Source: a virus. From it: DNA of 64,000 nucleotides. Below the pieces are notes generated by a model. That model was not told where the DNA came from. It did not search any database and worked only from the letters and a program-made list of their open reading frames with translations. Position 1 is the stretch's first letter, and every line of letters starts with the position of its first letter. Positions 35,751 through 54,928 of this stretch are shown here, in pieces. The stretch spans positions 32,001-96,000 of IMG/VR virus record IMGVR_UViG_3300042330_000854, one strand, 5' to 3'. The translations under genes and the position numbers were made by a program.

Positions 35751-36068
35751 TTAACCCCAACGTTCAAGCATTTCTTTTTGAAATGTTTCATCTTGGTTTG
35801 GATGGTGTTTTAAAAAATCTTGAATTGTACGGAATTGGCGATGATTATACCAATAAACTTTAGTGCCATCAACAAACATAGCAGCCGGGCCATTTTCTCG
35901 ATGCCAAATCCATCCTTTTTTACACCATAATGAAAATCCTAATTTGCGATTAATCAAAGCAGGCGTTTCATCATTGGGCGAGCAAAGTTCAAAAATTCCT
36001 GGTAATTCATTAATATCATTAGTGTTAATTTCTTCACCATCAACATAACAAGTATATAAAAATTCCAT
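35751..36068 (-). CDS. HRLTGPA-family protein, B-type tail
   Basis: HRENGPA..HPNQDETFQKEMLERWG. Confidence 0.88.
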   Translation of the reverse strand: MEFLYTCYVDGEEINTNDINELPGIFELCSPNDETPALINRKLGFSLWCKKGWIWHRENGPAAMFVDGTKVYWYNHRQFRTIQDFLKHHPNQDETFQKEMLERWG

Positions 36069-36081
36069 TATTATTTCCTTT

Positions 36082-36237
36082 TTAATCTTTAAGTTCATTA
36101 ACAAGTTCAGCCTTCAGCTTCCGACGAATTTTACGGAATTCTTTCTTCCGTTTGCCAGCAGCAGGAAAACAACAACTGCATTTGATGCCGCCAGGACCAA
36201 CATTCAAATGCTTCATGAAATTACGCTTTGCGCTCAT
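36082..36237 (-). CDS. 51-aa basic protein with GPGG-x2-CxCC motif (not in ORF track)
   Basis: AGGAG RBS; MSAKRNFMKHLNVGPGGIKCSCCFPAAGKRKKEFRKIRRKLKAELVNELKD. Confidence 0.75.
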   Translation of the reverse strand: MSAKRNFMKHLNVGPGGIKCSCCFPAAGKRKKEFRKIRRKLKAELVNELKD

Positions 36238-36664: not shown

Positions 36665-36693
36665 ATTATAGAAAATTTTCCTGTCTTTGTCAA
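36665..36693 (-). promoter_or_regulatory. Stereotyped strong promoter
   Basis: TTGACA-AAGACAGGAAAATTTTC-TATAAT. Confidence 0.85.
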
Positions 36694-36995
36694 ATACTTT
36701 TTACAAAAAATTCTTGAAGACTGGCCCCAAAATCAATCAGTTGTTCTTTAGTTAATTCCTTACCACGAAATTCTTGTGGAAGATTTTTAATAGAGAGATA
36801 AATAAATCGAGCACCCCGGTTGTTAATTTCAGCAATAATATCGATTGGTAAAATACCAATAACAATATCGCCTTGTTTTAGTTTAGAAGTATTATTATCA
36901 ACCCAATGCGTAATAATTTCTGGCGCATCAAAACCTTTTTCGTTAAGCCATTCCAATGCCCCAGAATGGCGGGTAATAAAATAAACATTGCTCAT
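36690..36995 (-). CDS. csx16: Csx16 (VVA1548)-family protein, putative cOA ring nuclease
   Basis: YFITRHSGALEW, GDIVIGILP, GARFIYL, LPxExRGKELT..L..FGASLQEF. Confidence 0.88.
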   Translation of the reverse strand: MSNVYFITRHSGALEWLNEKGFDAPEIITHWVDNNTSKLKQGDIVIGILPIDIIAEINNRGARFIYLSIKNLPQEFRGKELTKEQLIDFGASLQEFFVKSI

Positions 36996-37024
36996 TTCAT
37001 TTCTCCTAATCAGTTGATAAACTT

Positions 37025-37053
37025 ACTATAGAAAATTTTTTAATTGTTGTCAA
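37025..37053 (-). promoter_or_regulatory. Stereotyped strong promoter of csx16
   Basis: TTGACA-ACAATTAAAAAATTTTC-TATAGT plus ATCAACTGATTAGGAGA leader. Confidence 0.85.
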
Positions 37054-37055
37054 CA

Positions 37056-37271
37056 TTATTGTTTAAAAATAACTTCTAAATATTTTTCATAAAAATAATA
37101 AGTAGAAGAAAGTAAAACGGATGATATTAAACAACATAAGATGAAAATAAATGTATTTGATCCAAATAACATAAAAATCGTTATAGGCAAGAAAATAGTT
37201 AAAAAATATAAAATTGTTAATAAAACAAAATATTTTTTCTTTAATTTAGTTAAATCCGTAAATTTATTCAT
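37056..37271 (-). CDS. Two-TM membrane protein
   Basis: Hydrophobic. Confidence 0.6.
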   Translation of the reverse strand: MNKFTDLTKLKKKYFVLLTILYFLTIFLPITIFMLFGSNTFIFILCCLISSVLLSSTYYFYEKYLEVIFKQ

Positions 37272-37272
37272 T

Positions 37273-37677
37273 TTATGAAAAATTATTTTGATTAATATTT
37301 TTAACAACGTGATAAACTTCACTTGAAATTTGCATTTTTACTTTATCAATTTCTTTTATTTTGTTGTTTAAATATCGATCAACTTCATTAAAAACATCTT
37401 CAAAAAATTTGTCTTGAATAAAAACTTTATTTTTATCAACAAATAACGAATGAAACAATCCGTCTTTTCGATAATAGCTATAAATTTCTGTTTTTTGTAC
37501 AGAAATTGAAATTTCTGGTGGAATATGTGCAAATCGTTGAATAACTGTAAAACAAAATTCTGTTTTAACACCATCAATTTCACGAGTAAAAAAATAATTA
37601 AAAAACCTAGATGGATTGTTTACAATCTTAGCTTTTTGTAAAATTTCATCAAATTGTTTATATGTAATACCTGACAT
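37273..37677 (-). CDS. Hypothetical protein
   Basis: AAGGA RBS. Confidence 0.7.
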   Translation of the reverse strand: MSGITYKQFDEILQKAKIVNNPSRFFNYFFTREIDGVKTEFCFTVIQRFAHIPPEISISVQKTEIYSYYRKDGLFHSLFVDKNKVFIQDKFFEDVFNEVDRYLNNKIKEIDKVKMQISSEVYHVVKNINQNNFS

Positions 37678-37739
37678 GTTAATATCCTTTATGTTAATAA
37701 GCTACATAAAATATTACATATTGTGTTTTTTGTCAATAA

Positions 37740-38192
37740 TTATTTTATTAAGCCTACTTGAGTGCCTTTTGAATTTATGGTTAAAGTTTGACTTCTTGGA
37801 TTATCTGTATATGAAACATGAACCCAACCAGAATTTTTACCTTTAGCACTTTCATAAAATTCTAAAATCAATTGATCAAATGGAAAATTTTCTTCTATAA
37901 ATTTTGCTAAATCATAATTACTCATACCATTAATTTCAATATCGGCTGCTTGACCTTTTACATGTTGTGATGTTGGTTTGCTTCCAACCGCACTATTAAC
38001 TAATAAACTACGATAACCAGAATTAATTGTTAATTTCTGATTTAACAAATCAGTTAAAGGATCAAGAATAGCTTGACATAATTTTTTTATATTTTCTATT
38101 TCTTGTTGTCCTGGCGTATTGTCTAAATTTCTTCTTGTTGCTTCATAAGAACGAGTAAAATCTTGTAAAGTATAATATTTGCTAATTTCCAT
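37740..38192 (-). CDS. Peptidase M15A-family endolysin
   Basis: INSGYRS, SQHVKGQAADI, WVHVS. Confidence 0.92.
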   Translation of the reverse strand: MEISKYYTLQDFTRSYEATRRNLDNTPGQQEIENIKKLCQAILDPLTDLLNQKLTINSGYRSLLVNSAVGSKPTSQHVKGQAADIEINGMSNYDLAKFIEENFPFDQLILEFYESAKGKNSGWVHVSYTDNPRSQTLTINSKGTQVGLIK

Positions 38193-38231
38193 CTAAATAA
38201 CCTCTTGTTTAAGATTATTTAGATTTTTATT

Positions 38232-38540
38232 TTATCCATATTTTAACAACATTTCAATTTGAAAAGCATTATCTTGATTTGGATGCGCGTTTAACCAAGC
38301 TTGAAAATTTTTATATTCTTTCCCATTTAACCAAAAATATTCAGTCCCATCAAAATCAATTAAAGCTGGTCCAGTTAATCGATGCCAAATTCTTCCTTTT
38401 TTACACCATTCTTTAGACCCATCAGTTAAATCTTCCCAAGCTGGTGTGTTTTCATCTAGCGATGACATTTCATCCCAGGGTATTTCATCCCAAACATCAG
38501 TTGTAAATTTTTCACCATCGACGTAATAAATAAACTTCAT
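38232..38540 (-). CDS. HRLTGPA-family protein, B-type tail
   Basis: Family motifs. Confidence 0.9.
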   Translation of the reverse strand: MKFIYYVDGEKFTTDVWDEIPWDEMSSLDENTPAWEDLTDGSKEWCKKGRIWHRLTGPALIDFDGTEYFWLNGKEYKNFQAWLNAHPNQDNAFQIEMLLKYG

Positions 38541-38908
38541 TTTTTCAACTCCCAAAGAACATAATCAGTATTATTTTCAAAAATAACTTCAATCCAATAA
38601 ATTAAAAAACAAGAATTAAATCCTTGACTTTTATGTTTCATACAAAATTTAATTTTACCTAATGGTAAAATTTCAATTAAAAAATTATGCAAATTATGCA
38701 AACTTAAAGTTAATCCATAATAACTAGATAATAACGTTATTAAATCATCATTATCAATAAATTTATCAAATAATTTTAAAATATAATCTTCATCATCCGA
38801 ATGATACTCAAAAACATTTATTGATTGGCGATTTTCAATTACTGTTAATTCTTCAATTAATTCTTTTAAAAAATACTGATTTTCTTTTTGTAAAAGTATA
38901 AATCTCAT
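38537..38908 (-). CDS. Hypothetical protein with shared C-terminal tag
   Basis: Ends IFENNTDYVLWELKK. Confidence 0.7.
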   Translation of the reverse strand: MRFILLQKENQYFLKELIEELTVIENRQSINVFEYHSDDEDYILKLFDKFIDNDDLITLLSSYYGLTLSLHNLHNFLIEILPLGKIKFCMKHKSQGFNSCFLIYWIEVIFENNTDYVLWELKK

Positions 38909-39531
38909 TTTTTCTTTAATAATAAATCATAAACTGTCGCCAAATAAGGCTCTAAACCAATGGTTTCAATTTTACTTGTATGCGGAATTGAATTTTTCAT
39001 AATTTGGCTTAAACTAATTGTACGTTTTACTGTAGTTTGTTTACCACGTAATAAATCATTTATTGTTGTTCCTGAAACTTTAAAACCAGTTATGATTTTA
39101 CATAAATCAACTGAATATAAAACAACACCTGTTGTTTTATTATGATGTTGATGATCAGTTCCATTATGAACTTCAAAATTAACTCTTAATGTTTTAGCAA
39201 AACTATCATTATTATAAAACAAAGATTTTTTTTCGCTTAAAGAAAAATTCTTTGCTTTCATACAAATTAATTTTACTTCCATTGTTTCACCATTTGCAGC
39301 AATAACATCATCACCGGATAAATGATCGATTGCTAAACTATCCCAATAAAGACCAGCTACCCAATCTTCCCAACGTTGAGGAAAATTTCCTGATTTTTTT
39401 GCTGCGTTTGTGTTTGGGCACCAAAGTTTAGCATTTTGATAATCATGATTACGTAAGGCTAAAGGCAAAATTGCTTGCTGTTCACGAATTGTTCTATCCA
39501 ATAATTTGTTTTTTGAGAATTTCAATGTCAT
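38905..39531 (-). CDS. Hypothetical protein, possible PD-(D/E)XK nuclease fold
   Basis: WED..GDDVI..MEVK spacing. Confidence 0.45.
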   Translation of the reverse strand: MTLKFSKNKLLDRTIREQQAILPLALRNHDYQNAKLWCPNTNAAKKSGNFPQRWEDWVAGLYWDSLAIDHLSGDDVIAANGETMEVKLICMKAKNFSLSEKKSLFYNNDSFAKTLRVNFEVHNGTDHQHHNKTTGVVLYSVDLCKIITGFKVSGTTINDLLRGKQTTVKRTISLSQIMKNSIPHTSKIETIGLEPYLATVYDLLLKKK

Positions 39532-39841
39532 GTGTTTCTAGCTTTCTGTTTAATTGAATTGTTGTGTTTGGTATTTGAGGGAAAATATTAATTAAGATAT
39601 TATTTTCATCATAACAAAAAATTTTATGTTCTAAATTATCTACTGATTTAGTATTTTTTTTAGGTATTTCTAAAATTAAATGTGATTTTGTTTTTTTAAT
39701 TGGAAAAGTGTTTTTTTCAAAATCAATTAAAATTTTATCATTTAAAATTGTATATGAAAAAAATTGATGTTTATTCCATTCTGGCAATTTTGATAATTTT
39801 AAAATTGTTTTTGTTGTTAATCTTGTAATTTGTGCATTCAT
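39494..39841 (-). CDS. Hypothetical protein
   Basis: GAGG RBS. Confidence 0.65.
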   Translation of the reverse strand: MNAQITRLTTKTILKLSKLPEWNKHQFFSYTILNDKILIDFEKNTFPIKKTKSHLILEIPKKNTKSVDNLEHKIFCYDENNILINIFPQIPNTTIQLNRKLETHDIEILKKQIIG

Positions 39842-39919
39842 TCTTACATCCTCATTTTTAATGATAATAAATGAATATTTTAAAAATTACAAAATAAAAA
39901 AGAGAGGGAATCCCCTCTC

Positions 39920-40096
39920 TTAATTAATTTCAGACTTTAATTCTTGTTTTAAACGATGACGACCAATTCGGTGCATAAGTTTATTATCACGAGAATGGGC
40001 ACGTTTAGAACGGCGACTATTATAAGTTTCACGAGGAAAACGATCATGACCAGGACAACAGCCATGATCTTCGCGTTTCATACCATAAGGTTTCAT
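39920..40096 (-). CDS. 58-aa Arg/His-rich protein with CCPGH motif (not in ORF track)
   Basis: AGGAG RBS; MKPYGMKREDHGCCPGHDRFPRETYNSRRSKRAH...; terminator 39896-39921. Confidence 0.75.
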   Translation of the reverse strand: MKPYGMKREDHGCCPGHDRFPRETYNSRRSKRAHSRDNKLMHRIGRHRLKQELKSEIN

Positions 40097-40102
40097 TTTT
40101 TA

Positions 40103-40225
40103 TCACTCCTTGTCATTGTTATTATAAACATCGCTCATGTCATAAACCGAATAATCTTCTTTATCACCTAGCCCTTGTAACAGAAACATAATGACAAAAA
40201 ATAAGAGGCCGATTGTAATAAACAT
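40103..40225 (-). CDS. Small membrane peptide
   Basis: AGGAG RBS, MFITIGLLFFVIMFLL. Confidence 0.6.
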   Translation of the reverse strand: MFITIGLLFFVIMFLLQGLGDKEDYSVYDMSDVYNNNDKE

Positions 40226-40271
40226 AATATTCTCCTTGTTTTTATTTTGACATTTCTGTCTTGATGTATTT

Positions 40272-40300
40272 ATTATAGAAAATTTTTTATTTCTTGTCAA
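40272..40300 (-). promoter_or_regulatory. Stereotyped strong promoter
   Basis: TTGACA-AGAAATAAAAAATTTTC-TATAAT. Confidence 0.85.
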
Positions 40301-40306
40301 GTATTT

Positions 40307-40501
40307 TTAAAGAAATTGAAGAATAATTCCTAAAACTAAAAAACTAATAATCCAAAATTTTGCGAGTTTATCTCCTTGTTCTTTTGAAATGTTTTTAGTT
40401 TTTAATTGTTTATAATAAATTTCTCGTTTAAATGTAAACTGATAAGTTAGAAAAGCGGAAAACGCAATCATTAAAATACCAATGATGTTAAAAATAATCA
40501 T
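40307..40501 (-). CDS. Two-TM membrane protein
   Basis: AGGAG RBS. Confidence 0.7.
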   Translation of the reverse strand: MIIFNIIGILMIAFSAFLTYQFTFKREIYYKQLKTKNISKEQGDKLAKFWIISFLVLGIILQFL

Positions 40502-50421: not shown

Positions 50422-51039
50422 TTAAATCCATAATCCTAAATATTCTAATTTTAAAGACTCAATTTGTGATGTTGGAACAGCAATCCCTTGCAAATAAAAA
50501 TTTTCTGAAATTGCATCTTTTTCATCTTTTCCACGTTGAAATTTAAAACGGCGCTTTTTTAGTCCAGAATAAATATCTCCCAAATCAGATTGAGTTAATT
50601 GATTGGTATTACCAATTTTAACAAATACATAAGGCGTTGCCGTTTCAATAGCATTAACAAATTTTTGATCACCAAATAATAATGCTTCTTGATTGAATTG
50701 TTTTGCTAATTCAATTGCAAAATCTAAAAATTCACTTGGAGTTAAATTGGCTTTTGCCAATAAAGGCACAAAAAAACTTAATTCTTCTACCTTGTTAGTT
50801 TCACCATTTTCTAAGGTTTCAATCCAGTGTCCAACCAATTGAATTCCGCCGTAACCTAATCGATTACGAACTTTATTAATCAATTGATTAGTTCGTTTCA
50901 AATTTTCTTCTCGTGTAAATTCTGATCGAAATGCACTAAGAATAAAAAATTCTGTTGAATTCATAAAATGATAAAGACGTGAAAGTTTTGCCCCACCAGT
51001 TTCATTAATTGAATTATCGCCAATTTTTTTAATTTTCAT
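50422..51039 (-). CDS. Conserved-type phage protein (SAFR..EN..R..G.W.E..E.SF..F.Q)
   Basis: Motif pattern; AGGAG RBS. Confidence 0.7.
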   Translation of the reverse strand: MKIKKIGDNSINETGGAKLSRLYHFMNSTEFFILSAFRSEFTREENLKRTNQLINKVRNRLGYGGIQLVGHWIETLENGETNKVEELSFFVPLLAKANLTPSEFLDFAIELAKQFNQEALLFGDQKFVNAIETATPYVFVKIGNTNQLTQSDLGDIYSGLKKRRFKFQRGKDEKDAISENFYLQGIAVPTSQIESLKLEYLGLWI

Positions 51040-53811: not shown

Positions 53812-54143
53812 GTAAAGTTTTTTATATTGATGGAATGAAAGTACCAGATGATGAATTTCCAGTTACTCCTTGGGAACTTATTTCTTCACCCGACGAAAAC
53901 ACACCTGCTTTTGAAAATTTAGAAACAGGTTTTAAATCTTGGTGCTTAAAACATTATGTCTTGCATCGATTAACTGGACCAGCAAGAATTTTACCAAATG
54001 GGGCTTGTCAATTTTATCTTAATGGTAAAAATTATGAAACCGTAAAAGAATGGATTGTGGATCATCCAAATCCCGATTTATATTTTCATAAAATTGGTGT
54101 TTTTACAGAAACCGATAAAATTTTGTGGTTTTTACAAAATTAG
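53808..54143 (+). CDS. HRLTGPA-family protein, A-type tail
   Basis: Family motifs. Confidence 0.9.
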   Translation: MSKVFYIDGMKVPDDEFPVTPWELISSPDENTPAFENLETGFKSWCLKHYVLHRLTGPARILPNGACQFYLNGKNYETVKEWIVDHPNPDLYFHKIGVFTETDKILWFLQN

Positions 54144-54260
54144 TTTTAAAGCGATTTAAAGCCTATTAATCTAATTAGCTACCCAACTACCTAAATCAAT
54201 TTAAAACTGCTGTAACATGCCTCTAAATGCAATTAAACACCTATTTGAAAGAAAATATAA

Positions 54261-54590
54261 ATGATCATTTATTATATCGATGGCAAAAAATATATAGCTA
54301 AAAAATATCAAAATATTCCTATATATAAAATTTCTTCACCTGATGAAAATATACCTGCTTATGAAAATTTAGATTCAGGTTTTAAATATTGGTGTAAAAA
54401 AGGAGATATTTTTCATCGATTAACTGGGCCATCAACAATTTTGGCTGATGGAACAAATTATTTTTATCTTAATAATAAAAGATATATGAATATTCGAGAA
54501 TGGATTAATAACCATCCAAATCCAGATTTATACTTCGATGCAATTGGATTGAATGAAACCGATAAAGTTTTATGGTTTTTACAAAATTAA
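54261..54590 (+). CDS. HRLTGPA-family protein, A-type tail
   Basis: Family motifs. Confidence 0.9.
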   Translation: MIIYYIDGKKYIAKKYQNIPIYKISSPDENIPAYENLDSGFKYWCKKGDIFHRLTGPSTILADGTNYFYLNNKRYMNIREWINNHPNPDLYFDAIGLNETDKVLWFLQN

Positions 54591-54613
54591 AACTGATATT
54601 TGAAAGAAAATAA

Positions 54614-54928
54614 ATGACAATTATTTATTATATTGATGGTGAAAAATTTATTGTTGATGATTGGTTTAAAATTGAAAACATGCTATTTGATTTTTCTTCA
54701 CCAAATGAAGAAACGCCCGCTTGGGAAAACTTAGAAACTGGTAAAAAAGTATGGTGCTTAAAAGGATATCGTTATCATCGCTTAACAGGACCAGCAATTT
54801 ATTGGGCATCTGGTGATTATTCTTTTGGGCTATATGGTATTTTTTATGATGATATTTATGATTGGTTAAAAATACATCCAAATCAAGATAACTCTTTTCA
54901 AATTGAAATGTTGTTAAAATACACATAA
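54614..54928 (+). CDS. HRLTGPA-family protein, B-type tail
   Basis: Family motifs. Confidence 0.9.
   Translation: MTIIYYIDGEKFIVDDWFKIENMLFDFSSPNEETPAWENLETGKKVWCLKGYRYHRLTGPAIYWASGDYSFGLYGIFYDDIYDWLKIHPNQDNSFQIEMLLKYT

Follow-up and report, generated by a model that had tools for sequence, protein, structure and literature searches.

Type III CRISPR signalling is known to be countered by viral ring nucleases. An HPLC analysis of Csx16 shows that this enzyme degrades cA4 and neither cA3 nor cA6, even when tenfold enzyme is used, a specificity that has been measured for one cellular Csx16 (Hoikkala et al. 2025, PMC12409355). In the same work, a scan of 28,114 phage genomes identifies AcrIII-1 in 36, Csx20 in 4 and Csx16 in 2 of them. 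Later papers from this laboratory report that ring nucleases of viruses and plasmids can act as anti-CRISPRs; in the literature, AcrIII-1 is the only ring nuclease that we found tested in this capacity, and we found no test of a viral Csx16. The earlier note on the DNA described here had Csx16 as a type III CRISPR accessory assigned to the cOA-degrading ring nucleases, a statement that can now be made more strongly because Csx16 is cA4-specific by experiment (PMC12409355).

The window, i.e., the whole stretch of 64,000 nucleotides analyzed here, is taken from an IMG/VR virus record of 108,076 bp, of which it covers bases 32001-96000; CheckV estimates the record to be 33% complete, so that the genome should be roughly 300 kb in size. 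The Csx16 protein encoded in the window resembles the cellular Csx16 (PMC12409355) in that it belongs to the same HMM family, is about 100 aa long, contains the invariant residues, and is predicted to adopt a five-strand fold and to form a homodimer. Unlike the cellular genes, the window copy is located away from type III genes, in a solitary, promoter-led phage cassette, and its product shows at most 46% identity to the cellular proteins.

Two records of the phage collection carry Csx16, namely Methanobacterium virus Drs3, where the protein is annotated as “putative CRISPR-associated protein”, and Bacillus phage Shbh1, where it is listed as hypothetical; the two Csx16 phage genomes counted in PMC12409355 are probably the same ones. 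Both are stand-alone viral genes for which the same role is proposed. They differ from the window copy in sequence, as a tblastn search with the window protein against 50,697 phage records gives nothing at E 1e-3 and only Drs3 at E 0.3 (about 29% identity), with no direct match to Shbh1, and they come from other virus types and other hosts, neither of the two being a jumbo T4-like phage.

Family assignment and residue conservation

The gene (36690..36995, minus strand, ATG start, TGA stop) encodes a 101-aa protein of the Csx16 family, a candidate cA4 ring nuclease. The protein matches PF09652 (Cas_VVA1548) end to end, with residues 5-98 aligned to positions 1-90 of the 91-position profile, at 96.5 bits (E 1.1e-27; the Pfam cut-off is 25 bits), and NCBIfam TIGR02620 (Csx16) at 78.5 bits (the cut-off is 46.35). 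Both scores lie above the curated cut-offs, in agreement with the claim of a full-length Csx16/VVA1548-type protein in the earlier note, and, judged by these profiles, the assignment is far beyond chance. A Pfam scan of the protein with E values up to 1 returns PF09652 as the sole family, and there is no match to it among the PHROGs. The start of the protein, MSNVYFITRH, lines up residue by residue with the N-termini of its relatives, which indicates that the ATG start codon is correct.

An alignment of 38 stand-alone Csx16 members (the window protein and 37 relatives) contains six invariant residues, R9, H10, D43, G47, P50 and G78, all of which are, accordingly, present in the window protein, as is every one of the positions conserved in at least 90% of the members (M1, W16, H30, G42, L49, R77 and L81). 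The motifs of the family, that is, the N-terminal T/S-R-H, the G-D...G-x-L-P block and R-G, are all recognizable. This pattern supports a functional protein and does not single out cleavage, given that the catalytic residues of Csx16 have no experimental mapping in the literature examined.

Predicted fold and dimerization

The AlphaFold2 model of the window protein (pLDDT 95.6) is a single small domain with five strands (residues 4-7, 26-28, 44-47, 63-69 and 91-96) and four helices, a predicted Rossmann/CARF-like arrangement in which the five-stranded sheet is flanked by helices. Hoikkala et al. describe the Csx16 fold likewise, as a five-stranded sheet with helices at its flanks (PMC12409355); there is no solved Csx16 structure for comparison. 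A Foldseek search started with the model has as its top rows the Crn1 ring nucleases Sso2081 and Sis0455, which share the CARF-like core and act on cA4; these matches are weak, however (E 0.03, TM 0.45), Crn1 proteins are longer (about 180 aa), and no sequence match to them is found. In a wide fold search, the model matches AFV3-109, a relative of Crn2/AcrIII-1, with Z 5.0 and an rmsd of 2.6 over 74 residues, and the CARF domains of Can1, Can2 and Sso2081 with Z 4.3-4.5; these matches are scattered among generic Rossmann-like ones that reach Z 6.5. A weak likeness of Csx16 to AFV3-109 is also reported in PMC12409355. The window protein is not a member of DUF1874, the family of AcrIII-1/Crn2, and thus belongs to a different sequence family. 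As far as a predicted model can tell, these matches are consistent with the published fold relations of Csx16 and are not proof of them.

When two copies of the protein are modelled together, a symmetric homodimer is predicted with a score of 0.70, whereas the best of three controls scores 0.00; that mark is attained by 20 of the 30 proteins with a solved pair structure and by 1 of the 23 with a single-chain structure. The runs have at least 96% of their contacts in common, the partner pLDDT is at least 88, and the putative interface is formed by residues 48-55, 64-68 and 94-101. Thirteen relatives have a tandem two-domain form of Csx16, an architecture that fits a dimeric working unit.

Tandem two-domain Csx16 proteins of 200-230 aa (pseudo-dimers) score highest among the relatives of the phage protein, and in about 50 others Csx16 is fused to proteins of 300-690 aa.

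Genomic context in cells and in the phage

A scan of one genome per species identifies 33 cellular relatives, e.g., from Rhodobium, Acinetobacter, Psychrobacter and Thiomicrospira, with 35-46% identity to the window protein. The flanks of 12 cellular loci, comprising 117 larger ORFs within 10 kb of Csx16, contain 13 RAMPs, Cas1 (8), Card1 CARF (6), Card1 endonuclease (5), the Cas10/Cmr2 palm (5), Cmr3 (4), Cmr2_N (4) and Cas6 (4). By these domain matches, the cellular Csx16 loci are type III-B systems with cA4-activated Card1/Can2 effectors.

These neighborhoods bear on the ligand of the phage protein. One alternative holds that the protein is mainly a sponge of cA4 or another cyclic oligonucleotide, or that its specificity has shifted (to cA3, cA6 or CBASS-type molecules), so that it counters another or an additional defence. 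There is a precedent in Csx15, the sister candidate, for which almost no cleavage is detected and a sponge function is discussed (PMC12409355), and the window protein shows at most 53% identity to any relative, with specificity known for a single Csx16. Nevertheless, the assayed Csx16 stays cA4-specific at the tenfold enzyme level (PMC12409355), the family-invariant residues, including the R9-H10 pair, are all retained in the phage copy, and its nearest cellular relatives adjoin the cA4-activated Card1/Can2 effectors, which makes this alternative unlikely. A broader version, in which a diverged ring nuclease or sponge with ligands wider than or other than cA4 would counter multiple cyclic-oligonucleotide defences simultaneously (type III together with CBASS-like ones), appears highly improbable.

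Unlike in the cellular relatives, where they lie within 10 kb, type III CRISPR-Cas genes are absent around the phage Csx16 throughout the 108 kb. A Pfam scan of the 149 ORFs of the record yields 39 families; there is no Cas family other than Cas_VVA1548 among the 25 best of these (matches with E values to about 2e-7). Six-frame searches of the 108 kb detect no RAMP, Cas10 palm, Card1 CARF or Csx1 HEPN, and a repeat scan finds no CRISPR-like array in either the window or the 108-kb record. Accordingly, the claim of the earlier note that the window is free of cas genes and CRISPR arrays holds and extends to the 108 kb; the check for a type III locus beyond the window that it suggests gives the same result over the 108 kb, about 33% of the genome. 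The lack of type III neighbors is a feature of the context rather than of the protein family.

In principle, Csx16 could instead be an off-switch that serves a type III or another cOA system carried by the phage itself, in the remaining two-thirds of the genome. The completeness estimate of 33% leaves space for such a system, and one complete phage from IMG/VR that encodes Csx16 also contains a marginal RAMP-like frame. However, the cellular Csx16 genes lie within some 10 kb of their type III genes, whereas the phage Csx16 is solitary over more than 30 kb on each side, with no RAMP, Cas10 palm, Card1 CARF, Csx1 HEPN or array detected, and forms a promoter-led cassette of its own amid ORFans. 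Self-regulation of this kind is therefore very unlikely.

The complete phage in question (contig L008) is 55.9 kb long and bounded by terminal repeats; its RAMP-like frame, at 54058-54858 on the minus strand, scores 21.3 bits (E 6.6e-6) and may be a remnant of a phage-borne type III system. A transposase is encoded near the Csx16 gene of L008.

Organization of the Csx16 cassette

A Shine-Dalgarno sequence AGGAGA, read from the sequence, is located at 37002..37007 (minus strand), 6 nt upstream of the Csx16 ATG. Further upstream, at 37025..37053 on the same strand, there is a sigma-70-type promoter TTGACA-17-TATAGT that matches the consensus in 11 of 12 positions and contains the extended AAAATTTTC motif; its -35 hexamer TTGACA (37053-37048) and -10 hexamer TATAGT (37030-37025) are separated by a 17-nt spacer. 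The strong promoter and ribosome-binding site ascribed to this gene in the earlier note are thus both identified. The range given there, 36690-37053, comprises the gene together with its promoter, since 37053 belongs to the -35 hexamer. On the other side, the TGA stop of Csx16 falls within the -35 hexamer of the next cassette's promoter (36665..36693, minus strand), TTGACA-17-TATAAT, which agrees with the consensus in 12 of 12 positions. Hence Csx16 is a compact cassette of its own, with the 3' limit marked by the next promoter.

The same promoter architecture recurs in this DNA. The pattern TTGACA-N17-TATART is found 7 times in the window, with 0.11 occurrences expected, and the longer motif TTGACA-N8-AAAATTTT-N-TATA has 13 copies with at most 2 mismatches, 10 of which are located 30-62 nt upstream of an ORF start on the same strand; the class can also be written TTGACA-N8-AAAATTTTCTATA. 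The motif thus defines a genuine promoter class of this phage that should suit the unmodified host polymerase. By analogy with T4, promoters of this class would be active early in infection. The description of Csx16 as an early gene is accordingly weaker than in the earlier note, as its basis is a sigma-70-like promoter class common to small ORFan genes.

Other viral Csx16 genes and the origin of the phage copy

A query with the window protein alone yields no relatives in IMG/VR, and a narrow peptide pattern retrieves 12 IMG/VR contigs with Csx16, which are 20-65 kb long, have a GC content of 41-64% and, in several cases, possess terminal repeats. Portal and terminase genes are present in the Csx16-bearing contigs, and 9 of the 10 contigs searched contain no RAMP. 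Thus, phage-borne Csx16 is already on record in the literature and recurrent in IMG/VR, and the window copy is a further member of this set.

In a tree of 213 Csx16 domains, the copies from the IMG/VR contigs form a cluster of their own that does not include the window protein, and no supported clade forms around the latter, so that no donor can be named. The GC content of the Csx16 gene is 33.0% and its GC3 is 20.6%, compared with means of 26.4% and 16.4% for the genes of the phage, i.e., within about one standard deviation. With such a phage-like composition, any transfer would be old or from a low-GC donor. The notion of a captured host off-switch is weaker than originally stated, given that the tree offers no supported neighbor and that the composition is already that of the phage.

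The carrier phage and its accessory genes

The carrier is an uncultured jumbo myovirus from lake water with a GC content of about 27%. Its 959-aa tail sheath protein is 49% identical to its counterpart in Agrobacterium phage Atu_ph07 and 47% identical to those of the PA5oct group, and it also encodes a baseplate wedge protein, a DnaB-like helicase, a primase and seven tRNAs, with rIIA located directly downstream of the Csx16 cassette region. Judging by the tail sheath, baseplate wedge, rIIA, helicase and primase genes, the carrier is a real phage. A search with rIIA detects no close relatives of the phage, and the tail sheath retrieves two distant fragments only. The stretch is present in lake-water metagenomes, and four further lake-water runs contain contigs with an identical sequence across the Csx16 gene.

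Three bins of this region (37010-37243, 38180-38647 and 40286-40500) have 5-20 times the depth of their neighbors in four lake-water runs; they contain the promoter motif and a dispersed HR-x-x-GPA paralogue family and are shared with many other contigs, which points to repeats common to related lake phages. Joints within contigs (e.g., 37026 to 40254) were considered as deletion variants and rejected: their sides are about 21 nt long and link copies of the promoter motif, and the contigs are short and of low depth.

Csx16 is surrounded by small ORFans, genes for two membrane-like proteins and for an M15 peptidase or endolysin, and members of the HR-x-x-GPA family. On either side of the cassette region, a paralogue of about 110 aa from this family is encoded (35751-36104 and 38232-38555, both on the minus strand); the two have W-H-R-x-x-GPA in common as well as the tail HPNQD...F..EML at the C-terminus, and match neither Pfam nor PHROG families. 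Small, basic, Cys-containing proteins of 51 and 58 aa are encoded at 36082-36237 and 39920-40096 (both minus strand), each preceded by the promoter motif, and match the unnamed PHROGs 25404 (E 1.7e-11) and 5428 (E 4.6e-18), respectively. About 14 kb from Csx16, a 205-aa ORF (50422-51039, minus strand) contains an S-AdoMet_lyase domain (PF23780, 45.9 bits, match at 50587-50943) and is a T3 SAMase-like candidate anti-restriction gene.

The Pfam families identified in the 108 kb further include two Amidoligase_2, DUF2828 and DUF7788 (TROVE/Ro60-like), RNA ligase, NUDIX, HD_4, a PAS-domain protein, Endonuclease_NS and a DNA pol III alpha fragment. By these domain assignments, the accessory set of the record is RNA-centred, which is unusual for a phage.

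Such a gene complement is compatible with reuse of the Csx16 domain outside defence, for example in RNA or nucleotide metabolism along with the RNA ligase, NUDIX and tRNA genes, or with a neutral passenger. The phage has many RNA-related genes, and the ORFan neighbors offer no functional context. Against this, the family-specific residues are fully conserved, the phage-like composition (GC 33.0%, GC3 20.6%) suggests long retention of the gene, and cleavage of cA4 is the sole activity known for the Csx16 family (PMC12409355). A role without any link to defence thus seems quite unlikely.

Proposed function and implications

It appears reasonably likely that the gene in the window encodes a cA4 ring nuclease acting against the type III CRISPR of the host. 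For the phage copy itself, the analysis establishes the family membership, the conserved residues, a predicted fold and dimer, the organization of the cassette and the lack of type III parts in the 108 kb; its cleavage activity, with the cA4 specificity taken from PMC12409355, its early timing and its use against the host are inferred. The earlier reading of the gene as a candidate anti-type III CRISPR protein holds. Soon after infection, the host-type (sigma-70-like) promoter of the cassette would drive transcription of Csx16. The type III Cas10 of the host would sense phage RNA and make cA4; a functional, homodimeric enzyme of the Csx16 type would bind cA4 and cut it to linear products. With cA4 destroyed, effectors of the Card1/Can2 or Csx1/Csm6 type would never be turned on. 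The result would be an anti-CRISPR that works like AcrIII-1, i.e., as a small homodimer whose degradation of cA4 leaves the type III effectors without their signal, but is built on the Csx16 fold. Considering the sequence evidence, an anti-CRISPR role of this Csx16 is credible.

Csx16 was proven to be an enzyme only in 2025 and has been counted in just two cultured viruses. The window copy, although hardly surprising to a specialist, is an intact gene with clear boundaries and its own promoter, and it resides in an abundant freshwater jumbo phage, which makes it well suited for testing the function of a viral Csx16 for the first time. It adds to the growing evidence that several families of ring nucleases have been recruited by phages, and its presence hints that the low-GC lake host of this phage may defend itself with a cA4-signalling type III system.
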